Notes: generated by a model from the letters alone, not told the origin. Numbered from the stretch's first letter, positions 16,704-64,000 are shown. The stretch: 64,000 bases of DNA from a virus (IMGVR_UViG_3300042923_000275:4059-68058), one strand, 5' to 3'. Translations and numbers: made by a program.

Positions 16704-19700
16704 GGTACATGGCGTTCAAGGCTGGCTCAGTAGTAGTAGATATAGTAGGTAAGGCCGATGCCCTCCGTCGAACCTTCAGGGAAGCCAAGGATTCCGTTAA
16801 GGATTTTGGTAACCAAGTAAAGGAGACGGATAGTCAAGTAAAGAAGATCGGACAGAACATAGTGTCCTCTATGTCGGAGCCGAAATCAATGTTCGGCTGG
16901 CTCAATAAGGTCGGTAAGACATTAAAGGACATAGACTATGTTGCTGGTCGTGGATTCATCAACACTGGTAAATCGGCTAAACAGATGGTATCAGAAGTAG
17001 AGAAGGCATCGGCTAATTTAATTCAGGCGCAAGGTAGGTTGTCATTAGCGTCTGAAAACTATGCTGTCGCGGCCTTGAATGCCATGAGTGCTGACCTAAA
17101 AGGAGCGAAGGGGAAAGAGACATCCGCAAGGAAGTCTCAGGAGGCCGCACGTGCCAAGGTAGAGGAAGCACGGTCTGCCTTGGCGTCCGCTAGGGCAATC
17201 GATACAAACACTCAATCGACGGATCGAAATTCGCGGTCAAAGGAAAAGCAGACCGGGGCGTCGCGCAAGGCTCAGATGGCTGACTTAGACCTGATATTCG
17301 CCGCTATGTATGCGCAGGTTGCACTAGCAGGAATGATCAGTAGGTTAGAAAATATATATACCGTTGGCAGTAGAACTCGTATGGCATTAATGGGATTAGA
17401 ATCGACAGTACGCGGATTAGGCGTGAGTGTTGACGCTACAAAGGATACATTCAAATATTTCCAACAAGACGGATTGATGTCAGACCAGGAAATATCTAGT
17501 TCTATGAAGAATCTATTACACATGGGCTATACTATAGAGGACACGAAGACCATAATGGATGCATTTAAGGATTCTGCGGCATTTGGTCGACAAGCGTCAT
17601 TAGGATTCGGTGAAGCCATCGTACGCACTACTGAGGGTATGAGATTGGGATTATCTACTTTATCTGATGGTGCTGGTATGGCAAAGAACTTAGGTCAGAT
17701 ATTGGCCGAGAATGGATATGCGGCGGAAGATTTATCTCGTGCCACTACTGATGCTGGAGTAAGACAGGCACTATTAAATGGCATTATGAAAGAAACATCT
17801 ACATCTGCTGGTGATGCGGCCAAAATGGCTAAGGACCTAACTGGTACGATGTCCAGGTTGGGAGCAGAGAGCAACAAGTTATCAACATCAATATTAGTTG
17901 CATTATCTGGGGTGTTGAATAGTATAGCCCAGACGCTAATTCCGGTAATAACCGCGATCAAAGATTGGATAGATGCGCATCCTAGATTGTCTGCGGCTAT
18001 AATCATAACGATTGGCATAATGCTTGCATTAGTATCAGCATGTCTGATATGGCAATTCATATTTCCTATGTTGATGAAAGGATTTAAGGAATTAATTGGC
18101 ATATTGACATTTATGACAAGTCCGATGGGGTTAATAATCGCGGCAGTAATAGTACTCGCAACTGTCATAGCGGCAAATTGGGACATAATATTGTCCGCAT
18201 GTAAGGAATTATATCAAGGATGGACATCCTATTTCGGATTAATGTGGAATTACATAAAGAGTTTCGCATCGTCCGTCGGTGACATATTTAGTTCATTAGG
18301 TAAGATTATAATGGGAGCTATGACATTCGATAAATCAAAAGTGGAGGACGGAATATCTGGACTAAAACAAGGATTAGTAGATGCCGCTACTACATTTGTT
18401 GATAGTTCACGTGCAACTACTGATGTAATATCAGGTACGGCTAATGTATTATTCAAAAAGCTCGATCCTGTGAAACTGTTTAGTAATACCTGGGATAAGG
18501 TTCAAGGTATATTCGACCCGGTGAATGTAGACCTGAGTGATAAGAAAGCAAATCCTAGAGGATCTGGTGTTGGTGGAGAAAAGAATAAGAAGGCCACTGG
18601 TCCATCTCCATATCAGATAGCCATGAGACAGTATGATCATCAAGTTACCATGGATGAACTATCTGAGTATGACCAAAAATTAAAGGCATTAGCACTCATC
18701 GGTAAAACAGTACAAATGACAGCCGAAGAGCAAATGGATTGGGAAGAGAAGGTATATAACCTTGTTAAGGCAAATAACGAGGATCTAAAGAGATATGCAA
18801 CTGAGTATATGAATTATCAGGTTGCCACAGGCCAGAAGACTGTAGAACAACAGTCGGATTTTATTGAGGAACAACTAAAAAACGAAAAAGACAAGTATGC
18901 CAAAATTCAATTAATGCAACAGGCTTATGATCTGAGACAAAAACTTAAGCAATATGATAACGATTATTTTGATTATCAAGTCAAGATAGGTAAGAAGACA
19001 TTACAAGATAAACTCGACCGTATTAATCAAGAAATATTAGCGGAGACGGATAAGTTTAAGAAGTTGGCGCTACTTAATAATAAATTTGATACGGAAACCA
19101 AACTATACAATGATCAAGCATATGCGTCTGTGTCCAAACTCATGAACGAGGTATACGACGGCACTAACCGATCTATTGATAGTGTGGTTAATGACATCAA
19201 GAAGATCGAGAAGTATTACAGATCACTCGGTGCCGCTGGTAAAGAGGCCGCAGATATGGCATCAGATGCTATCAAGGAACTACAGGACAATACTGACGAT
19301 TGGGTCGATGGTGTACTCGATGGGCTAGCCAAGGTGACATTGGGATATGAGAAATTCGGAAATTTCATAGACAATCTATTTGCCGAGATAGCGGTCTCAT
19401 GGGTTAAATATCAGCTCAAACAGATCCTCGGTAATGTACTTGGTGGGCTATTTAATAGCATGCCATGGATGTCGGGCAAGGCGCACACTGGTGGGTATAT
19501 CTCACGTAGTTCCGGTATAGTACAGAAGTATCATACTGGCGGTATTATCGGAGGACTTGAATCTGATGAGAGGGTATTAATAGGCCAGACAGGTGAGAGG
19601 GTATTGAGTCGCAAGGAAACTGCGGCATATGAGGCTGGTAAGAGGGTCGCAGGGAATGGTGGCTCCGGTGGCGGTGTTACTAATATATATAACGTTCAGG

Positions 19701-33085: not shown

Positions 33086-35662
33086 TCACCATCCATACGA
33101 TATTTTATTGGTTCCTATAAATGCTTCCACGGCTGACACAAACGATGTTGTTACCGATATCATACATTGTGTCATTATCTCTACTTCCTCCTCTCCTGTG
33201 TGTACCAATATGTTCACTACTGTATTTCCTGTGCTACATTCACATTCGTGTTTGAGTGCGGCCAATGTCATCAGGTGTGGTGTTAATCCTAGATCGATCA
33301 ATACGGATCTACAGTATACGTTATTTCTTTCTATCACGGCTATGTCAGACATTACCAATCCCGTTTTACCCATATATTCGTTATACCTTCCTTTAATTAC
33401 CACCATCTTTCCTTCTGCGTTCTTAATGATGCTATCGTACTGCCTAAATACGTCGCTAAACACGGTGCAATCGAAGCTAGTGTTCTCTGATTCTACGGTA
33501 ATGAACGCCATCTGTCCTTTCTTCGACTGTTGTACACGTACCGTTTTTAGGATGCCAGCGATGCCCTTATCGTAATCGCCGAATTGATCGAATCGAGTAG
33601 TCGCGCCGAATCTACGAATATGTTCATCGGCTGTACTGAATGGCGTGCCGGATACATAGAAATTCAATAACTCTTTCTCGTGTTGGATCTTGTCCTCTTG
33701 ACACATAGGTTTGATGATATCTGGTTGTATATACTTCTTATTATATCTCGATTCCAACTCATCTATGAGGTATGCTCTATCATCAAATATGTCAAATGCC
33801 CCAGATAATATTAGTGTCTTCTTCGCCGCTGAGTTACACTCCTTGGGAGCCATACGGTCGCAAAAATCCTCGAAACTCCTAAAGTAGCCACTCGCATTTC
33901 TTTCCTTAATAATTGCCTGTACCGTCTTTCCGCCTATGCCCTTGATACCAGTGAGACCAAACCGCACTGCGAAGTTATCAACCTGGAACCCAGTATAACT
34001 GTAGTTTATATGTGGCGGTAATAGTGGTATTCCCAATGATTTGATCTCGCCTATCACGTTTGCCAGTTTATCATTTGTGTCTAAGAATGAGTTCGCCTCG
34101 GCGGACATATATTCCATTGGATAATAACACTTCAGATATGCGGTACGATATGTAATGAGTGCATATGCCGTACTATGTGATTTGTTGAAGCCGTATCGTG
34201 CGAATGTCTCTATCTGGTGCGCTACGTCCTCCACGATCGACTTATCGTATCTCTTCTCAATAGCCCTATCTATGAATTTCCCTTTCTCCTTTGCCATTAG
34301 ATCCTTGTCTTTTTTACCCATTGCCTTTCTCAGTTTGTCTGCTTCTGCGGCTGAATATCCAGCCATCACCATCGATATTCTCATGACCTGTTCCTGATAT
34401 AGTATTACTCCCCATGTGGGTTTCAATATTAGCTCCAGATCAGGATGTTGGTAAGTAACCACCTCACGGCCTAACTTGCGGTCGATATATATCTTATCCA
34501 TCTTCGCATCTAATGGGCCGGGACGATATAGAGCCAATAATGCAATTATATCATTGAATGATGATATGTGCATCCTCTTTACTACCGATGTGATACCCTG
34601 ACCCTCTAATTGAAATACCGATCTGGTCTTACCATTTCTAAGCATCTTATATACGTTAGGATCTTCTAGATTTATATCCTGTATAGTGAAATTTGGTTCA
34701 TGTTTCCTTATTGTCTTGACAGTCTCTGCTATTACTGATAGTGTACGCAAACCTAGTATGTCCATTTTTAGTAATCCAGCTTCTTCTGCATCATGTTTGT
34801 CTAGCTGAACAGTCATATGTGATGAGTCTACTTCTGCGGCATCTTTCTTTCCTTTGGCGAACAACGGTACCAGAGTAGCCACTGGGACATCGCAGATTAT
34901 GACACCTGCGGCATGCTTCGATTCATTACGGTGCAATCCCTCTAGTTTCAGACATGTTTCCCAGAATCTTGGGTAACGCGAATTGATGTTGTCTACCAAT
35001 TTACGGAAATCTGCGTATTGCTCGTAGATATCGGTGATAGTGGTATCGTCATCCTCCTCCTCTTCATTAGGAGTGACATCCTTTATGCGGTTTACTTCAT
35101 CCCACCCTATCTTCATTACTTTTCCGACGTTCTCTAGCAATGAATTGCGTTTCAGAGTACCGTATGTCATAATCTGTGCCACGTAATCAGAACCATATCT
35201 CTGGATTATGTAATCGACTACTTCTCCTCTGCGGTACTGACAGAAGTCAATATCAACATCAGGCATCTCTGGGCGCTCAGGATTCAGAAAACGCTCGAAG
35301 ATCAGGTCATATTCTAGAGGGTCAAATTCCGTTATTCCTAAACAGTATGCCACCACCGCACCGCCAGCAGAGCCACGTCCAGGACCGACTGGTATATCAC
35401 GGAGCCTAGCGGCATTGATCAGGTCCCATACGATCAGAAAATACGAACTGAAGCCCATGTCGTCTATGACTTTTAGCTCGTAGTCTATCTTATCTCTTAG
35501 TTGGGTAGTTATTGTACCATATAATCTTGATGCCCCCTTGTATGTGAGGTATCTTAGATAATTCGTCGGATTGTGCATACTTCCCATATCACCAGTAGGT
35601 ACTTGAGAGATGTTACAACACACATCCTTGGCGTCCTGTTGTTGTAAGTATGTCTCACTCAT
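33086..35662 (-). CDS. dnaE: DNA polymerase III alpha (DnaE), catalytic/C-terminal part
   Basis: GPGRGSAGG, FERFLNPER..MPDVDIDF, KMDILGL, YQEQVM, FNKSH, OB fold. Confidence 0.92.
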   Translation of the reverse strand: MSETYLQQQDAKDVCCNISQVPTGDMGSMHNPTNYLRYLTYKGASRLYGTITTQLRDKIDYELKVIDDMGFSSYFLIVWDLINAARLRDIPVGPGRGSAGGAVVAYCLGITEFDPLEYDLIFERFLNPERPEMPDVDIDFCQYRRGEVVDYIIQRYGSDYVAQIMTYGTLKRNSLLENVGKVMKIGWDEVNRIKDVTPNEEEEDDDTTITDIYEQYADFRKLVDNINSRYPRFWETCLKLEGLHRNESKHAAGVIICDVPVATLVPLFAKGKKDAAEVDSSHMTVQLDKHDAEEAGLLKMDILGLRTLSVIAETVKTIRKHEPNFTIQDINLEDPNVYKMLRNGKTRSVFQLEGQGITSVVKRMHISSFNDIIALLALYRPGPLDAKMDKIYIDRKLGREVVTYQHPDLELILKPTWGVILYQEQVMRISMVMAGYSAAEADKLRKAMGKKDKDLMAKEKGKFIDRAIEKRYDKSIVEDVAHQIETFARYGFNKSHSTAYALITYRTAYLKCYYPMEYMSAEANSFLDTNDKLANVIGEIKSLGIPLLPPHINYSYTGFQVDNFAVRFGLTGIKGIGGKTVQAIIKERNASGYFRSFEDFCDRMAPKECNSAAKKTLILSGAFDIFDDRAYLIDELESRYNKKYIQPDIIKPMCQEDKIQHEKELLNFYVSGTPFSTADEHIRRFGATTRFDQFGDYDKGIAGILKTVRVQQSKKGQMAFITVESENTSFDCTVFSDVFRQYDSIIKNAEGKMVVIKGRYNEYMGKTGLVMSDIAVIERNNVYCRSVLIDLGLTPHLMTLAALKHECECSTGNTVVNILVHTGEEEVEIMTQCMISVTTSFVSAVEAFIGTNKISYGW

Positions 35663-36582
35663 ATTGCCGCTCCGTTCCGCTGGTTGATTAGCCAAGCGTT
35701 GAAATCATTATCGTCCGTCGGTATCTGGAATTTAGGTAGTCTGATGTTTCCGTATTCTATTATATCGTCATCGCAACTGTCGACTATATGCTGAGTATTC
35801 GATAAATATTCCGGTTTGTAAATCATAGACATTTCCTCTGTGGTTAATAGATGGTAATTCGTACCATCAAACTTGAATTTCCGTGGGTCTACCAGATTCT
35901 GACCTGTACCGATACACAATGCTACATCGTGAGCAAATGCATCCTCAGCGTTCAGGTAGTGAGAATCCTGTGTCGCAATGATTGGTATACCATAGTGCTT
36001 AGAGAAATATTCATATATGTCAGATACCATTTTCTCCTGTGGTAGGTCGTGATTCTGCACCTCTAGGTAGAAATCACTACCAAATCTCGATGCATATTTC
36101 TCTATAACCGCCTTACATCCATCTATATCCTCTTTGAATATAAGATTCGCAAATTTACTACCTATACATGCCGTGGTTACTATGATGTTATTACCGTCCA
36201 TTCCGAATAGTAACTCTTCGTCTATGCGCGGCTTGTAGTAAAATCCCTCTTTGAATCCTAATGAACACATCTTAATTAGTTGCTCATATCCCCTACGATT
36301 CTTGGCAAGAACTATCAGGTGATGATATACTGATTCACCCTTCTTCGATGTCTTATCGCTCATACTAATCGGTGCCACATAGAACTCACAGCCGATAATA
36401 TGTTTGATACCAGCTTCTCTACATTCCTTATTAACCTTCACTAGAGAATACATGTTACCATGTTCGGTTACAGCTACTGCTTTGTGCCCTATAGATTTGA
36501 GTTTATTTACCATTTCCTCTACCTTTATTGCTCCATCGAGCAGACTGTAGGTAGTATGTACGTGCAAATGCGAAAAATTCAT
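35659..36582 (-). CDS. dnaE: DnaE N-terminal PHP domain encoded as a separate ORF
   Basis: HLHVHT.YSLLDG, TEHG, GCE, KPRID, DSHY. Confidence 0.9.
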   Translation of the reverse strand: MNFSHLHVHTTYSLLDGAIKVEEMVNKLKSIGHKAVAVTEHGNMYSLVKVNKECREAGIKHIIGCEFYVAPISMSDKTSKKGESVYHHLIVLAKNRRGYEQLIKMCSLGFKEGFYYKPRIDEELLFGMDGNNIIVTTACIGSKFANLIFKEDIDGCKAVIEKYASRFGSDFYLEVQNHDLPQEKMVSDIYEYFSKHYGIPIIATQDSHYLNAEDAFAHDVALCIGTGQNLVDPRKFKFDGTNYHLLTTEEMSMIYKPEYLSNTQHIVDSCDDDIIEYGNIRLPKFQIPTDDNDFNAWLINQRNGAAI

Positions 36583-49783: not shown

Positions 49784-50860
49784 TTACGGTAATTCTACCT
49801 TATATTGACGGAGATCAACGATCTCGCTATGTTTGGGTCCAGTACCAATCATAGTTACTGGCACGCCGCTTTCGTCTTCGACTTTTTTAATGAAGTGTTT
49901 TGTTTCCTGAGATAACAAGTTGTAGTCGGTGACACCATAATCGCGGTAATTGATATAATTCACGAAATTCATTGCGATCTGTGTCGGCCTGTTGATCATT
50001 ACCATATATTGTAATCGATCGAAGTCGAATTCGAAAATTCTGCGTACCTTCTGAGTGACAGTAGTCCTCTCCAATAATGGTTTCGGTGAGCCTGACATCG
50101 CAGTAATTTCACCCCATGTGAGTTCTTTGCCACCCATCGGACCGGACCATCCGATCTGTTCGCCACGTTCATTGAATTGATTGCCGACGCGGATTGGATG
50201 ACACCTCATTACGGCAATTACGTGATCGATAGCCTGAATTGGAACGCCGCAATCTGCTACAACCTGACCAACATGTGTCTGTCGAGATGTCGTGTACGGA
50301 TATGCCATTCCGTAATTGATATCGAGGTCAAAACCCTGTGACCCCTCGATCATTACCATGTGATTTTGTTCGATATGGTTATTGATCTCATACTCAGTAT
50401 CAGACAAATACAGACGCAATGATTCGACATCGCGTGCAAGCATTACATTTCCCCCACGCATGATTTTGTCGGCTTGTGCCGCACCGCAGCCCTTTTGAGT
50501 CGAAGAAATATGACCAAGTGCTTCCGCTTCGATTTTCTTGTGTTTATCATTGATAATCATAGCACGAGGGTGAATATGTAGCCTGTGACCGCACAAGAAT
50601 TCACTGAGTTCGCGCTCAAGAATACTCAGTGTAATACCAGCGCCTGGACCGATGAACAATTCTGTACGTCCATTCACTACTGCCTGTGGGATTTGCTGTA
50701 CCATAAATGGTTTTCCTTCATCGCTCACCCATGTATGACCAGCATTGGTATAGAAGTTACAGATGGCGGCATCATAGTTATCCTTGATCGCCATATATCC
50801 GACAAATTTGCCTTTGCCCTCGGACCCTGCCTGACCACCAAATAATACATTAGTTGACAA
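49784..50860 (-). CDS. purZ: PurZ-type 2-aminoadenylosuccinate synthetase (PurA family)
   Basis: GSEGKG (Ser at the PurA catalytic Asp), NAGHT, PIRVGN, TTVT..RR, NFVN in place of TKLD; TTG start after GGAGGT. Confidence 0.75.
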   Translation of the reverse strand: MSTNVLFGGQAGSEGKGKFVGYMAIKDNYDAAICNFYTNAGHTWVSDEGKPFMVQQIPQAVVNGRTELFIGPGAGITLSILERELSEFLCGHRLHIHPRAMIINDKHKKIEAEALGHISSTQKGCGAAQADKIMRGGNVMLARDVESLRLYLSDTEYEINNHIEQNHMVMIEGSQGFDLDINYGMAYPYTTSRQTHVGQVVADCGVPIQAIDHVIAVMRCHPIRVGNQFNERGEQIGWSGPMGGKELTWGEITAMSGSPKPLLERTTVTQKVRRIFEFDFDRLQYMVMINRPTQIAMNFVNYINYRDYGVTDYNLLSQETKHFIKKVEDESGVPVTMIGTGPKHSEIVDLRQYKVELP

Positions 50861-50909
50861 TGGAACAACCTCCAATATTCTGAATTTCCTGCGATTATTA
50901 TATCGTCTG

Positions 50910-56047: not shown

Positions 56048-56518
56048 TTAGCCAACTATTTCTGTTTTGGTGGCTACTGTACGTTTTTCTTTCAATCGGT
56101 CATTACGGCGCGCTTTAGTAAATGCCTGTTGACATGACTTGCAACGAGTCACCTGGAATGCATCCTGTACCTTAATAATTCTCTCGGCTCCACAGTCCTT
56201 GCAATTGATTGCTGTAGTCTTGCCGTGTAGAACCGTCCCATCTCCGGTGGTGGTCATTGTAGTCTTTGGTTTCTGCTTTGGAATTACATCAGTGTCACCT
56301 ATAGAGGCCTGTTTAGTGGTCTTCGCTGGTTTTTCCTTTTTGATGGTGTCGGTGGCCTGTGCTACTGTTTTCTGTTGGTCGGTGGTAATTTCGTCTTGTG
56401 GTACCACCAGAGACTTCTTGATTTTTGCCCCGCAGGTATCACATCTGAGAAAACCACGTACTCCTTCAACTAGATTACCAGTACATCCAGCGAGTATACA
56501 CTTATGATTCGATTCCAT
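56048..56518 (-). CDS. zinc-ribbon hypothetical protein (paralog of 60679..61227)
   Basis: C.DCG..R.IK.QD.FQVTRC..CQ; GGAGGT SD. Confidence 0.75.
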   Translation of the reverse strand: MESNHKCILAGCTGNLVEGVRGFLRCDTCGAKIKKSLVVPQDEITTDQQKTVAQATDTIKKEKPAKTTKQASIGDTDVIPKQKPKTTMTTTGDGTVLHGKTTAINCKDCGAERIIKVQDAFQVTRCKSCQQAFTKARRNDRLKEKRTVATKTEIVG

Positions 56519-59717: not shown

Positions 59718-60076
59718 TACTTGATTGGCGGTACGTACCGCTCATTGCGGTGACCACAATCTGGGCACATCAGCTGTGCGAACACTCCCTTCTCTACGCC
59801 TACCACCTGATATCTTACTATACCACACATCGTGCAGTTTGGCGGTTGATACCTCTCCAGTATTACCTCATCTATGTTGTATTTCGAGTATGTCACTACC
59901 AAGATATCGCCATTCGGCATCTCGGCTCTGTGATCGTCGACCCATTTTCCTTTGTTGTCCATAACGTACCGCTTCGCCACGGCTATCACGGCCTCGCGCA
60001 CGTCGTTCAAGCTGATTGTTTCCCCACGCCTAGAGCATGTACGGTGGAGGATTGCACGCCATCTCGAAGCTGTCAT
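59717..60076 (-). CDS. hypothetical protein with C-terminal zinc ribbon
   Basis: CTMC...CPDC; GGAGGG SD. Confidence 0.65.
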   Translation of the reverse strand: MTASRWRAILHRTCSRRGETISLNDVREAVIAVAKRYVMDNKGKWVDDHRAEMPNGDILVVTYSKYNIDEVILERYQPPNCTMCGIVRYQVVGVEKGVFAQLMCPDCGHRNERYVPPIK

Positions 60077-60157
60077 AGTATTTTCCCTCCGATATATTTG
60101 ATAACTAGCCTAACCGATCTCCAAGCCAATCTAGCCGCTAGGTTCTGTCTGAGCATG

Positions 60158-60664
60158 TTACCTATCCTCCTCCACAATCTGAGATGCCGCCTTAAAGCTA
60201 TGTTCCATGGCTATGTAGGAATGGTGGATTACTGCATCTGTATGCTTTAACTTCTCTGTGATTAAGCTAGCCACCAGAGCGGCGGCGATGTGTGCGGATA
60301 CGGCGTGACGATGTGCAGTTGCCGCATCAAGGTGAGCCTCAGCCACTAGATAGGCCCCAGCTACCAAATCGCTGTTAGCCTTAGCCGCATCGCTGGCATT
60401 CCAGGCATGTCTGTTGGCCTCGAAGTAGTTGTTTTCCTCTGCGGCCTTAACTGCATCTGCTTGATCGCGTTCAGCTTGCTCGAATGGATGCTCGGTATTC
60501 CTGTCCCGTCTCATTTCCCTCCTGTATCTGAGACCATTGGAGTCTCGATCACCATGTTTCCCCTGGCACGTGGTGAAGGCCATATTGGTGGTGTTACCTC
60601 GCCACCCATGGAGGCCGGACCGAGATAGTCCTGCACCCATGGCTGGCGAGGTGGATTGCTCCAC
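60158..60664 (-). CDS. Ala/His-rich helical protein related to the U-free genes
   Basis: TEHPF and DAATAH..A..AH.AAA motifs; start uncertain. Confidence 0.6.
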   Translation of the reverse strand: MEQSTSPAMGAGLSRSGLHGWRGNTTNMAFTTCQGKHGDRDSNGLRYRREMRRDRNTEHPFEQAERDQADAVKAAEENNYFEANRHAWNASDAAKANSDLVAGAYLVAEAHLDAATAHRHAVSAHIAAALVASLITEKLKHTDAVIHHSYIAMEHSFKAASQIVEEDR

Positions 60665-60678
60665 CTCACCTGATTCGC

Positions 60679-61227
60679 TTATTCCTTTGAGGCTTGGTCG
60701 GCTTTGAACTTGGCTAGCAACTCGGCGGCGAGAGCGGCATCTGCTTCCTTGGCTAGGCGTATCTCGGCGCGTTTGTCTTTCCTCTTCTCAGCGCGCTTGG
60801 CATTGCGGATCTTCTTCTGACACTCCTCGCATCTGGTGACCTGGAAGGAGTCTTGGATTTTGACCGTTCTGGTGGTTCCGCAATCCTGGCAGGTAATCTC
60901 GGTGGTTTCTCCAACCAGCTTGCGTCCGTTCGGTAGGATTGTCACCTTGGTCTCTACGGTTGGCTTGGTGAGCTTGCGATGTAGTTTGGCGATTGCGGCT
61001 AGATGGGCGATCACGGCATCTGCGTCAAGTACCGGGGCGTCGAGGACGACTGTCATGCTCTCGATTGTCTCTTTGATCTCAGTGATTTGCTCTGCCGTCA
61101 GCGTGTTGGTGTCTACCTCGGTGGTCTCGATGGTTTGGGTCTCGGATTGGTTGTTTTCCTCGGCGATCTTGACGGCTTGGTCGATTTCGGTGGTGGTGAC
61201 TTGGTTGTTCTCGTTGTGCTTTTTCAT
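60679..61227 (-). CDS. zinc-ribbon/coiled-coil hypothetical protein
   Basis: AAAGGAG SD; C.DCG..R..K.QD.FQVTRC..CQ. Confidence 0.75.
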   Translation of the reverse strand: MKKHNENNQVTTTEIDQAVKIAEENNQSETQTIETTEVDTNTLTAEQITEIKETIESMTVVLDAPVLDADAVIAHLAAIAKLHRKLTKPTVETKVTILPNGRKLVGETTEITCQDCGTTRTVKIQDSFQVTRCEECQKKIRNAKRAEKRKDKRAEIRLAKEADAALAAELLAKFKADQASKE

Positions 61228-61471
61228 AGGTGTCTCCTTTCGTCACGCCCGCAATCTTAGTAGATGGCTGGCGTGTTGCACCGATTGTACGGCTGGTGCG
61301 CGCTCTATTCGGTCACGGCGTCTTCGTCGTGCCGCAGGGGCGTCGAACTCGGTTTCCCTTCGTTCGGTGCTCCTGCCGCGCGGCGATGGTTTCCCCGCCG
61401 GGTCTCGTTGGGTCGGTTTCCCTTTAGGTCTCGGTGGGTCCGTTTCCCCTCTCGTCCGTCGCGGGTTCGCT

Positions 61472-61565
61472 TTGGTCCGTTAGCTCTTTAGTCCTTTAGT
61501 AGACGAAAGCCTTTGGTCCTTTTGAGTGTTAGTCCTTTAGTCGCATGAAGGGTTTAGTCCTTTAG
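61472..61565. repeat. 12-bp direct repeats (TTAGTCCTTTAG) with a 41-bp period
   Basis: Exact copies at 61488, 61529 and 61554; variants at 61472 and 61513. Confidence 0.8.
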
Positions 61566-61634
61566 CGAGTGAAAGGGCAGGTTCCCGGTCTGCTGTTGTC
61601 TGCTCGGCCCTGTTGGGCTTGGCGTGGTGCTGTT

Positions 61635-61691
61635 GGCCCTGTCGGGTCGCGCGGGCGTCGGGCCTGTCTCCCGGCGTCCGCGCCGCCCGGC
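61635..61691. repeat. GC hairpin repeat, copy 1
   Basis: Arms identical to 62813..62867; loop differs. Confidence 0.85.
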
Positions 61692-61725
61692 TGGGTGGCG
61701 GCGGGGTGGGTCTTCTCGCGTCCCG

Positions 61726-62736
61726 CTACTCGGTGGCGCGTCGGGCGTGGTCTGCGGCTTGGCGGGCGTGGTCGGCTGTCCTCCTTCCTCTCTCCTCGGC
61801 GTCGTGCCCGTCGTCGGTGGTCTCGCGTGCGTGGGCCTGTGCTCTGGCGGCCTCGGCGTGGGCGCGTGCGGCGTGGATGTGTGCTCGGCGTGTCTTGGCC
61901 TCCTCGGCGGCCTCGCTGGCCCTCTCTGCCGCCGCGCTGGCTTGGTCGGCGGCCTCGCTGGTGGCCTCGCCTCCGTCCCTGCCGCCCGCCTCCTGCTCGG
62001 CTTGGGCCTCGGTGGCGGCCCGGTTGGCGGCGTGGTGTGCGGCGGTGGCGGCCTCCTCGGCTGTGTCCTCGCTCTCGTCCCGCTCGGCGTCGTCGGTCCG
62101 CTCGGCGTCGGCTCGTCCTGCGGCGGTCTCGTGCGCGTGGGCGGCCCGTCTGCTGGCCTCGGCGGCCTCGTCCCGTGTCGCGTCGCTGGCGGCCTGTGCG
62201 GCCCTGCGTGCTCGGCGGTCCGGGTTGGCCTCGTCGGCGTTGTCGCTGGCGGCCTGTGCGGCTCCGGTGGCGGCCTCCTCGGCTGTCCGGGCGGCGTCCC
62301 GTGCGGCGTCTGCCTCGGTGGTCGCCTCCTCGGCCTCGTCGGCGGCCTCCTCGGCCCGGCGGGTGGCGTGGCTGGCGGCCTGGGCGGCCCGGTGTGCGCT
62401 GGCGGCGGCCCGGTGTGCGTGGGCCGCCCACCCGTCGCTGGCGGCGGCCTCGGCCTCGCTGGCGGCCTCGTGGGCCTCGGCGGCGGCCTCGTGGGCGCGG
62501 TTGGCGGCCCTGTGGGCGCTGGCTGTGTCCGGGTGCTCGGCGTCGCCGTGTGCGCGTGCGGCCTCGGCGTGTCGGGTGGCGGCGGTGCGGTGTGCCGTGG
62601 CGGCCTCCTCGTGTGCTCCTCGGCTGGTGTCGGCGGCCTCGTGGGCCTCGCGTGCGGCCTCGCTGGCCTGTCTCGCCGCCTCGGTGGCGGCTGTGGCCCC
62701 GTGGCTGGCTCTCTCGGCTGTCTGTGCGTGTGTCGT
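61726..62736 (-). CDS. nearly U-free Ala/Glu/Arg/His-rich protein (336 aa, putative ACG start; not in track)
   Basis: GAGAGGAG SD, 9 nt, then ACG ACA; GCC/GAG-periodic frame; only T-containing codons are TGG, ATC and the TAG stop. Confidence 0.7.
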   Translation of the reverse strand, partial: TTHAQTAERASHGATAATEAARQASEAAREAHEAADTSRGAHEEAATAHRTAATRHAEAARAHGDAEHPDTASAHRAANRAHEAAAEAHEAASEAEAAASDGWAAHAHRAAASAHRAAQAASHATRRAEEAADEAEEATTEADAARDAARTAEEAATGAAQAASDNADEANPDRRARRAAQAASDATRDEAAEASRRAAHAHETAAGRADAERTDDAERDESEDTAEEAATAAHHAANRAATEAQAEQEAGGRDGGEATSEAADQASAAAERASEAAEEAKTRRAHIHAARAHAEAARAQAHARETTDDGHDAEERGRRTADHARQAADHARRATE

Positions 62737-62812
62737 GGCGTCCCTCTCCTCTCGCGCCGTCCGGTGTCCCCGGCTCGGCGGCGCGCCTTGGCTGTGGCGG
62801 CGCGCTGGCCCC

Positions 62813-62867
62813 GGCCCTGTCGGGTCGCGCGGGCGTCGGGGTGGTCCCGGCGTCCGCGCCGCCCGGC
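62813..62867. repeat. GC hairpin repeat, copy 2
   Basis: GGCCCTGTCGGGTCGCGCGGGCGTCGGG-loop-CCCGGCGTCCGCGCCGCCCGGC. Confidence 0.85.
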
Positions 62868-62892
62868 GGCGGCTCGGTGGTGTGGCGGCCCG

Positions 62893-63609
62893 CTACCGCG
62901 CCCCGGCGCGGGCGGCGGCCCTCTGTGCGCGGGCGGCGGCGCGGTGGGCGTCGGCGGCCTCGGCGTGGGCTGTCGCGGCGTCCTCCTCGGCGGCCTCGTC
63001 TGCGGCCTCGCTGGTGGCCTGTGCGGCGCGGCTGGCGTCCTGCGCGGTCCGCCCTGCCTCCTCGGCGGCCTCGGCGGCCCGCTCGGCGGCGGCCTGTGCG
63101 GCGTCCTCCCTGCCCTCGGCGCGGGCGCGGGCGGCGTCGCTGGCGGCGGCCTCGGCTCTGTCTGCGGCGTCCTCGGCGGCGCGGCGGGCGGTCTGTGCGG
63201 CGTCGAACGGGTGTTCGGTGGCGCGGGCGGCTCGCTCGGCCTCCTCGGCGGCGCGGGTGGCCTGGGTCTCGGCGGCCTCGGCGTGTCCTGCGGCGGCCTC
63301 GGCGTCCTCCGCGCTGGTCGCTCTGGCGGCCTCGGCGGCGGTCTCTCTGGCGGCGGCGGCGGCCTGTGCGGCCCTCTGTGCGCGGGCGGCCCCTGCGCTG
63401 GTGGGTGCGGCCTCGGCGGCTTGGGCCGCGCGCTGGCTGGCGGCCTCTGCCCTGTCTGCGGCCTCGGCGGCGTCCTTCGCGGCTCCGGTCCTGCGGGCAT
63501 CCTCGGCTGGCTGGCTGGCCTCGCGGGCCGCCCGGTCGGCTGTGGCGCGGGCCTCTCTGGCCTCGGCTCTGCGCTGGGCGGCGGTGGGGCGGCTGTCGGT
63601 CTGTGTCAC
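62893..63609 (-). CDS. nearly U-free Ala/Glu/Arg-rich protein (238 aa, GTG start)
   Basis: GAGAGGAG SD, 9 nt, then GTG ACA; T only in GTG, one GAT, TTC (HPF) and TAG. Confidence 0.75.
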   Translation of the reverse strand: MTQTDSRPTAAQRRAEAREARATADRAAREASQPAEDARRTGAAKDAAEAADRAEAASQRAAQAAEAAPTSAGAARAQRAAQAAAAARETAAEAARATSAEDAEAAAGHAEAAETQATRAAEEAERAARATEHPFDAAQTARRAAEDAADRAEAAASDAARARAEGREDAAQAAAERAAEAAEEAGRTAQDASRAAQATSEAADEAAEEDAATAHAEAADAHRAAARAQRAAARAGAR

Positions 63610-63890
63610 GGTGGTGTGCTCCTCTCGTCGGCGTCCGCTGTCTGCGGCTCGTCGTGCCCGGCTTGCTGGCGCGCCGGGCGGCGCGTGGGCTGTGTGCGTG
63701 TCCGGTGGACCTCCTGTGGCGGCCCTCGTGGCTGGCCTCCCGGCGGCCTCGGCGGCTGGCCCGCGTGCGTTAGCCCGTCGGCGGCCTCTGTGGGCCTCTC
63801 CGGGCCTCCCGTGCGCTCCCGTGGCCTGTCGCCCTGCCGGGCGGGTGTCTGCCGGGCTGGCGGCCCGGCGGGGCGCGCGGCCCCACCACC

Positions 63891-63919
63891 AGCACAACAC
63901 AGCCGCGCGCCCGTGTCAA
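63891..63919 (-). promoter_or_regulatory. candidate early promoter: TTGACA-17 nt-TGTGCT
   Basis: Perfect -35 at 63919-63914; non-consensus -10 preceded by TGTG; lies just upstream of the A-free segment. Confidence 0.45.
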
Positions 63920-64000
63920 GGGCCGTGGCGGGCCGTCCTGGGCTGTGGCGGGCGGTGGGACGCAGGGGCGTTCGCCGCGCTCCACGGACCTCCGCCGCGC

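Follow-up and report, generated by a model that had tools for sequence, protein, structure and literature searches.

A nearly T-free island with two coding-like genes and a candidate ACG start codon in a soil phage carrying a PurZ-type gene

The Z-genome phages, in which 2-aminoadenine (Z) takes the place of A in the DNA, include cyanophage S-2L, vibriophage phiVC8 and Acinetobacter phage SH-Ab 15497, which share a PurZ-type enzyme with a serine in the P-loop; in the portions of the source available to us, no T-free island is reported for these phages (PMC8342488). Here, we describe a window of 64,000 nucleotides (nt) that corresponds to bases 4059-68058 of the 68,058-base virus record IMGVR_UViG_3300042923_000275 in IMG/VR, and all coordinates refer to this window unless they are given as genome positions. 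The window contains a PurZ-type gene that also encodes a P-loop serine and, on the minus strand at 61580-63884, an island in which only 10 of the 2305 bases are T. Within the island lie 2 coding-like genes, here called gene 1 and gene 2, the second of which has no common start codon and carries an ACG in the place of one. The first-pass annotation of this DNA had singled out the ACG, but the T-free island as such is the larger result. The literature searched held no description of a T-free island of this kind, and Bacillus phage vB_BpsS-140, which has the closest cultured PurZ (49% identity), has none.

The island shares individual traits with several other systems. The pre-early, first-step-transfer region of phage T5 and the early left end of phage T7 are short early head blocks that have promoter features of the host type and encode small proteins whose fold is unknown. 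The island resembles them as an early head block that is perhaps located in a terminal repeat (its sequencing depth was 1.7 to 2.0 times that of the flanks in 2 of 3 runs), whereas the T5 and T7 regions are of ordinary base composition and have no sequence similarity to the island. The G-less cassette, a synthetic transcription template without one base, is likewise a unit that never needs one of the nucleotides, but the cassette is man-made and non-coding, whereas the island is natural and apparently protein-coding. With regard to the start codon, the AUU of infC is a known non-canonical start codon in bacteria, and we know of no natural bacterial or phage gene that has been annotated with an ACG start. 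The candidate start differs from previously described ones in that its apparent reason is the removal of T from a whole transcript rather than autoregulation. It resembles them in being a near-cognate codon, one base from AUG, that follows a strong Shine-Dalgarno (SD) sequence at normal spacing, and an ACG-started green fluorescent protein was found to carry an N-terminal Met, according to the accessible part of the study (bioRxiv 10.1101/063800).

The 2 genes and their start regions are located as follows, with p-values for codon periodicity.

62893..63609, minus strand: gene 1, with a GTG start, 238 codons and a TAG stop; rich in Ala, Glu and Arg, with one Phe, in the motif TEHPF (p = 7.6e-33)
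63619..63626, minus strand: SD sequence GAGAGGAG of gene 1, followed by the spacer CACACCACC (9 nt), the GTG at 63609-63607 and then ACA
61726..62736, minus strand: gene 2, with 336 codons and a TAG stop; a twelve-residue alphabet, to which a single Trp (62430) and a single Ile (61877) are added (p = 3.2e-41)
62746..62753, minus strand: SD sequence GAGAGGAG of gene 2, followed by the spacer AGGGACGCC (9 nt), the ACG at 62736-62734 and then ACA
62734..62736, minus strand: ACG that is the candidate start of gene 2 and lies opposite the GTG of gene 1 in the cassette alignment

The 10 T of the island were found in the GTG of gene 1, the 2 TAG stops, a TTC (2 T), a TGG, an ATC, a synonymous GAT, one AGGAGGT and an out-of-frame TAA. 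C accounted for about 37% to 43% of the minus strand of the island and A for 20%, and the segment 62001-64000 had a guanine-plus-cytosine (GC) content of 80% and an AT skew of -0.89. Across the 68-kilobase (kb) genome, runs of at least 80 bases that lack one base were observed solely for plus-strand A, and solely at the island and at genome positions 334-754. The avoidance of T, which the first-pass annotation took as avoidance of U, is real and near-absolute, and it sets in close to where a promoter-like site, described below, would have its +1. At third codon positions, the frequency of T rose from 0.00 in genes 1 and 2 to 0.07 in the following gene, at 60679-61227, to 0.13 to 0.30 farther down the early strand and to 0.45 in the late genes. 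The avoidance of T tracks one transcription unit, with genes, leader and spacers affected alike, and fades downstream.

The sequence of the island was recovered without one difference in Logan contigs of 3 soil sequencing runs from 3 studies, here called X1, X2 and X3, which may include the source sample. No variants were seen in these contigs over 60000-64000, the ACG included. The sequencing runs carrying the region were 3 DNA runs, and no RNA run was listed. A chimeric assembly was rejected, as one 67,920-base contig from X1 spans the region and phage-type motifs are located on both sides of it. An origin by A-to-G hypermutation of ordinary phage DNA was also rejected, because the content of C is too high as well, and so was an R-loop origin, which predicts avoidance of A on the sense strand, yet A is at 20%. 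It was also noted that the short unitigs of the island at 61608-63970 had a higher depth than the long flanks, with 1709 to 2037 versus 1020 in X3 and 730 to 838 versus 465 to 523 in X2, whereas X1 was uninformative. A long terminal repeat, easier library conversion of Z-poor DNA and GC bias are possible causes of the excess.

Since T-free sequence cannot form stop codons, every frame in it is open and an open frame alone proves nothing. Coding was instead judged by position-specific composition (chi-square) and by the phase in 90-base windows. The fraction of G at codon position 1 was 0.67 in gene 1 and 0.62 in gene 2, and the fraction of C at position 3 was 0.61 and 0.60, respectively, whereas periodicity was absent from the leader at 63884-63610 (p = 0.11), from the spacer at 62892-62737 (p = 0.46) and from the T-free block at genome positions 334-754, here called block 0 (p = 0.47). 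Each gene displayed one constant phase that arose at the proposed start and faded at the TAG. Examined in 30-nt steps, the phase of gene 2 was unbroken from about 62730 to about 61770 and absent from the 156 nt upstream. The T that have been kept inside the genes are located in the Phe, Trp and Ile codons and in the one synonymous GAT. In agreement with the first-pass annotation, the hidden frame from 62736 to 61726 was open for 336 codons up to a TAG and contained no ATG, GTG or TTG, and it was missing from the list of open reading frames (ORFs) with common starts. Gene 2 is real as a coding-like frame, and as coding-looking as gene 1.

The protein encoded by gene 2 was modeled with AlphaFold2 without an alignment, which gave five long helices at a mean predicted local distance difference test (pLDDT) score of 74. 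A Foldseek search of the model against the PDB gave nothing at E <= 0.001, with generic coiled coils only. No family in Pfam or NCBIfam matched gene 1 or gene 2, the best score in the ESM Atlas was 0.78, which is below the usable level, and the DNA of the island showed no similarity to any of 50,697 phage records.

The start regions of the 2 genes form a duplicated cassette. The mirrored arrangement of an SD sequence, a 9-nt spacer and ACG ACA (62736) in gene 2 versus GTG ACA in gene 1, which had been reported in the first-pass annotation, is present at the positions given there. The GAGAGGAG sequence occurs exactly twice in the 2305-nt island, in both cases 9 nt ahead of the GTG or the ACG. 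About 45 nt upstream of the 2 starts can be aligned, with the SD sequence identical at 8 of 8 bases and the spacer, although 9 nt long in both, identical at only 2 of 9 bases, and the 5 bases after the start codon are ACACA in both genes. Furthermore, both cassettes contain a small hairpin with one compensatory pair (CCGC...GCGG versus CCGG...CCGG). The initiation regions fold worse than shuffled sequences, being equaled or surpassed by 181 and 157 of 200 shuffles.

No T is present in any frame at 62894-62431, a stretch of 464 bases past the stop codon of gene 1. ATG, GTG, TTG, CTG and ATH are therefore impossible in this stretch, and fresh initiation needs a codon without T. ACG is the natural candidate because it contains no T and differs from ATG at a single base. 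An ACG located 5 to 10 nt past AGGAG is common in this sequence (4 of 16 AGGAG), so that the weight rests on the duplicated cassette and not on the combination of SD and ACG alone. The first-pass annotation had also pointed to a second such combination, in the leader of gene 1; an AGGAGGT at 63715-63709 is indeed followed, after 9 nt, by an ACG at 63699-63697 that is in frame with gene 1 (90 nt), but the stretch 63699-63610 is without coding periodicity. A similar cassette with GTG precedes the first T-poor gene of another PurZ phage, G012, and the ACG thus looks derived. No orthologs of gene 2 were found for a comparison of start codons, and the 2 comparators, the cassettes of gene 1 and of G012, both have GTG. 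The ACG is the only candidate for an independent initiation of gene 2, at a position that is homologous to the GTG in the alignment. From the sequence, we put the chance that translation of gene 2 starts at ACG 62736 close to even, if somewhat short of it. In E. coli, initiation at ACG is detectable, in the class of 0.1% to 1% of AUG, and yields an N-terminal Met, according to the part of the study that is available (bioRxiv 10.1101/063800).

The phage genome, of about 68 kb and with a GC content of about 43%, is that of a complete siphovirus with a PurZ-type gene and of soil origin. To judge by the relatives of its PurZ and capsid proteins, the phage probably infects a soil member of the Bacillota. 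The ends of the record share a repeat of 127 bases, which looks like the overlap of a circular assembly. Scans with PHROG identified genes for the terminase, portal, capsid, tape measure and tail fibres on the plus strand at 6358-31228, indicative of a siphovirus, and a long block on the minus strand with genes for a sigma factor, polymerase, NrdDG, primase-helicase, recombinase, exonuclease and ligase. The PurZ-type gene is located on the same strand as the island.

49784..50875, minus strand: homolog of PurZ-type succino-amino-deoxyadenylate synthase (phrog_1211, E = 2.1e-66), with the P-loop residues Gly17-Ser18

The Gly17-Ser18 pair of the P-loop was invariant in 14 of 14 aligned relatives, and Ser18 corresponds to the conserved Ser23 of the S-2L PurZ protein, which adjoins the 2-amino group of deoxyguanosine monophosphate, as described in the accessible part of PMC8342488. 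Given that the phage carries a PurZ-type gene, its DNA probably contains Z instead of A. The genome also encodes a Dut-family protein, an adenylate-kinase-like protein and a DHH phosphoesterase. The replicase at 33086-36582 on the minus strand is of the Pol III alpha type, with the PHP domain and the polymerase encoded by separate genes. It differs from the replicases of the PolA or PrimPol types that are usually discussed for Z-genome phages.

To survey other PurZ phages, we started from 80 IMG/VR loci that extended 10 kb to either side of a PurZ relative (1.43 megabases), in which a single A-poor island was observed. The records of 45 of the 80 loci were kept, while contigs of more than about 100 kb and short ones were left out. 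From these, 23 records were selected for PurZ similarity and completeness and taken whole, and with the addition of vB_BpsS-140 the data set comprised 24 genomes. Runs of at least 100 bases without A or T were identified in 2 of these 24 genomes, G012 and G044. The G012 genome (44.6 kb) contained a run of 216 bases within about 1.1 kb of T-poor sequence, and the G044 genome (91.3 kb) contained runs of 116 and 333 bases followed by about 0.7 kb of T-poor sequence. In both genomes, as in the phage described here, T is missing from the sense strand of the genes lying downstream, and the T-free sequence begins just past an AT-rich promoter-like segment and then fades. It was also noted that a T-free leader of 450 bases at 86900-87470 on the plus strand of G044 follows an AT-rich segment and a GC hairpin, and contains GAAAGGAG and, 4 nt later, ACG ACG, with no coding periodicity.

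The regions upstream of gene 1, between the genes and downstream of gene 2 contain the following features.

63914..63919, minus strand: -35-like hexamer TTGACA, read from the sequence as a perfect match
63891..63896, minus strand: putative -10 position TGTGCT, with no A on the non-template strand, at a spacing of 17 nt
63610..63884, minus strand: T-free 5' leader with 2 T in 275 nt, containing the AGGAGGT and the ACG at 63699 described above; not coding-like
62821..62865, minus strand: conserved GC hairpin after the TAG of gene 1, without a U tract, identified by alignment with the second copy and by folding
61643..61689, minus strand: second copy of the post-stop hairpin, after the TAG of gene 2, identified by alignment and folding
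61488..61564, minus strand: three exact copies of TAAAGGACTAA just past the T-free block (3 matches; 5 of 100 shuffles reach 3)
60679..61227, minus strand: next gene, T-minimised, encoding a predicted zinc-ribbon protein that is a homolog of the product of the first T-poor gene of PurZ phage G012
60158..60664, minus strand: gene of normal composition, likely a paralog of gene 1, with TEHPF and DAATAH..A..AH.AAA in common with gene 1; the public call is a form of 141 amino acids

A scan with the consensus found no full sigma-70 site, the -10 position being without A. The last T ahead of the T-free run is at 63885, and the run starts at 63884, about 7 bases after TGTGCT, which would be about the expected +1 if the putative TTGACA/TGTGCT site is a promoter. 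A word related to the promoter-like site, TGTGGTAATGG, is located 400 bases upstream of it. Block 0, the second T-free block of the genome, lies on the minus strand and outside the window; it comprises 421 bases and is located about 320 bases upstream of the promoter-like site. It contains an ATG...TAG frame of 145 to 149 codons that lacks codon periodicity, and the block is probably non-coding.

No match was obtained in an Rfam scan of 61200-64000. The fold of the post-stop hairpin at 62821..62865 was not better than that of shuffled sequences (z = -1.4), and a 28-base stretch of the post-stop hairpin gave 0 matches in JGI metagenome contigs. An inverted copy of TAAAGGACTAA was seen at about 312-322 of the genome, upstream of the promoter-like region, and the copies thus bracket the island; they could be operator or promoter sites. 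Repeats of the type GGGAAAC(G/C)GACCC are located at 61350-61475 on the minus strand, in the T-poor leader of the zinc-ribbon gene, and a similar word is present in the T-free leader of G012 at about 19067-19111 on the minus strand.

The zinc-ribbon protein encoded at 60679-61227 has a paralog among the early proteins, encoded at 56048-56518 on the minus strand, and in both proteins a C-terminal zinc ribbon, CxxCG...QD.FQVTRCxxCQ, precedes a basic tail. Among 6 loci with relatives of the zinc-ribbon protein, none had a T-free island of at least 100 nt, while one had a T-free run of 71 nt just upstream of the match.

The gene of normal composition farther downstream was compared with gene 1 in Smith-Waterman alignments. 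The similarity between gene 1 and the ORF at 60161-60583 had a z-score of 4.2 to 5.0, and the score was reached by 0 of 1000 and 1 of 1000 shuffles. The TTC of gene 1, with its 2 T, encodes the Phe of TEHPF, and the matching helix break of gene 2 reads EHPD. Gene 1 and the gene at 60158..60664 are likely paralogous. A composition-adjusted BLASTP among gene 1, gene 2 and the paralog detected no similarity, which was seen solely in the shuffle-controlled Smith-Waterman comparison. IMG/VR gave no relatives for the zinc-ribbon gene, the ligase or the TEHPF paralog.

The explanation that we favor is that the early region on the minus strand of a PurZ phage opens with the island, in which the sense strand is nearly free of T and the template nearly without A or Z. 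The island would encode 2 long, all-helical proteins rich in Ala, Glu, Arg and His, made up of the twelve amino acids that can be encoded without T. Gene 2 would be translated on its own from a copy of the gene 1 cassette in which ACG has replaced GTG, by low-level initiation with the initiator transfer RNA (tRNA). We assign this explanation as a whole a probability of roughly 45%. The avoided letter may be A, in the form of 2-aminoadenine, in the template rather than U in the RNA, and both predict the same sequence. A further step, which is tentative and has the odds somewhat against it, is that T is avoided since the RNA polymerase of the host would read template Z poorly on the incoming DNA. 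Tan et al. are said to have reported in 2022 that transcription blocks at Z for the T7 and human polymerases. Transcription from dZ templates is called an open issue in the available part of a 2026 paper (PMC12944874).

Several results weigh against the favored explanation. The PurZ-type protein scored 221.8 bits with the NCBIfam PurZ model, below the cut-off of 300, and 275.9 with the archaeal-type PurA model, for which the cut-off is 368. Unlike in the known Z-genome phages, the partners DatZ, which removes dATP, and MazZ, which hydrolyses dGTP, were not recognised, as neither an HD nor a MazG family was detected among the ORFs scanned against Pfam, and both the Pol III alpha-type replicase and the low PurZ score set the phage apart from them. 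No island was found in 22 of the 24 other PurZ genomes, the closest cultured phage vB_BpsS-140 included, which implies that phages with Z-DNA do not need one, and the survey covered PurZ phages only, so that the association of island and PurZ is tentative. The fully T-free parts of G012 and G044 are non-coding (p = 0.46 and 0.58), the first genes in these genomes start with GTG or ATG, and neither provided a second case of an ACG start. The similarity between gene 1 and gene 2 is weak (z = 2.1 to 2.4; reached by 8 of 300 and 21 of 1000 shuffles). A search with gene 1 against 5.8 billion proteins gave no match, IMG/VR held no relatives of gene 2, and the search with the paralog protein retrieved only itself. 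An exhaustive HMMER search gave 4 further matches, of which the three that were read are tandem-repeat proteins and were judged to be spurious. Finally, in the only bacterium with measurements, initiation at ACG is very poor, according to the accessible part of that study (bioRxiv 10.1101/063800).

Programmed read-through of UAG and stop-codon recoding are known in phages, and gene 2 might be a C-terminal extension of gene 1 that is produced by occasional read-through of the TAG at 62895-62893 and of a 52-codon linker, in which case the ACG would be a plain Thr codon. As in such systems, 2 coding stretches in the same frame are split by one TAG: the frame of gene 2 is that of gene 1, open for 388 codons from this TAG (chance about 1 in 3), a point overlooked in the first-pass annotation that counts against a separately initiated gene 2. 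There is also no T, and hence no stop, between the genes, and no start codon would strictly be needed. Unlike in read-through systems, TAG is a common stop codon here, which terminates 22 of the 65 genes, the primase-helicase and ligase genes among them, and the genome has 0 tRNA genes, hence no suppressor tRNA. Furthermore, the linker of 156 nt is without codon periodicity and holds the same hairpin as is found after the stop of gene 2, and a full SD cassette of its own has been kept ahead of the ACG. We consider read-through improbable. Another possibility is that gene 2 is an untranslated paralog, which lost its start to the T-removing pressure while the stretch was kept for the sake of a T-free transcript or DNA. 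The ACG differs from the GTG at 2 of 3 bases and in this is like the unconserved spacer, T-free stretches that are non-coding have been kept both here (156 to 421 nt) and in 2 other phages (216 to 421 nt), and the open frame has no weight in a sequence where stops cannot arise. Yet the periodicity of gene 2 is as strong as that of gene 1 and holds one phase over 1 kb, whereas the non-coding T-free parts have none; the SD sequence and the first codons are conserved; and the stop has been kept in frame, with the 2 internal T sitting in the Trp and Ile codons of the gene 2 frame. A silent gene 2 is on the unlikely side, though not far-fetched.

The periodic stretches might also not be genes at all, and instead represent expansions of GCC- or GAG-like triplets in a non-coding, GC-rich element. 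The low-complexity composition agrees with this, as does the lack of any homolog in the sequence searches that were run and the absence of all five tested ORF forms from the public protein collection. The periodicity is explained without tandem structure, however, and the periodic parts are bounded exactly, twice, by an SD-start cassette and an in-frame TAG. Moreover, the similarity to the neighbor of normal composition is at the protein level and includes the retained Phe codon, and such expansions are in our view very improbable. A different question is why T has been avoided. The cause might lie on the side of the RNA, if messages free of U escape U- or AU-directed ribonucleases, whether from the host, a defence system or the phage itself, or if they lack U-tract terminators, and the association with PurZ would then be accidental. 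The T-free run extends from about the expected +1 and includes the transcribed parts that are non-coding, as such a cause would have it, and the restriction of the survey to PurZ phages leaves room for it. On the other hand, 3 of the 3 islands seen are in PurZ-type phages, no ribonuclease gene was recognised next to the island, and the sequence that is predicted is the same as for a cause on the side of the template. We regard an RNA-side cause, although it is the chief competitor of the template-side one, as distinctly unlikely, and retain as the preferred reading an early head region with 2 genes, the second translated from the ACG.

A bolder proposal, which we offer as speculative and on balance doubtful, is that some Z-genome phages carry a 'boot sector', a first transcript that comprises leader and genes and has no A or Z in its template, because template Z on incoming DNA would be read very poorly by the RNA polymerase of the host. 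In the phage studied here, 2 early proteins would have been forced into a twelve-residue alphabet without hydrophobics, the start codon of one would have been pushed from GTG to ACG, the only near-cognate codon without T, and both helical proteins would adapt the host machinery to Z-DNA. If initiation at the ACG is true, gene 2 would be a natural phage gene with a start codon shaped by selection at the nucleotide level. Such genes are invisible to gene callers, as there are no stops in any frame and starts are lacking. Natural proteins composed of twelve kinds of residue, without Leu, Val, Met, Tyr and Cys and with a single Phe, Trp or Ile each, would bear on folding with a minimal alphabet. 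A natural transcription unit on the kilobase scale that excludes one base and yet encodes proteins would be a new kind of genome feature. The island also offers a testable answer to how an unmodified host could transcribe the first genes of a phage with Z-DNA.

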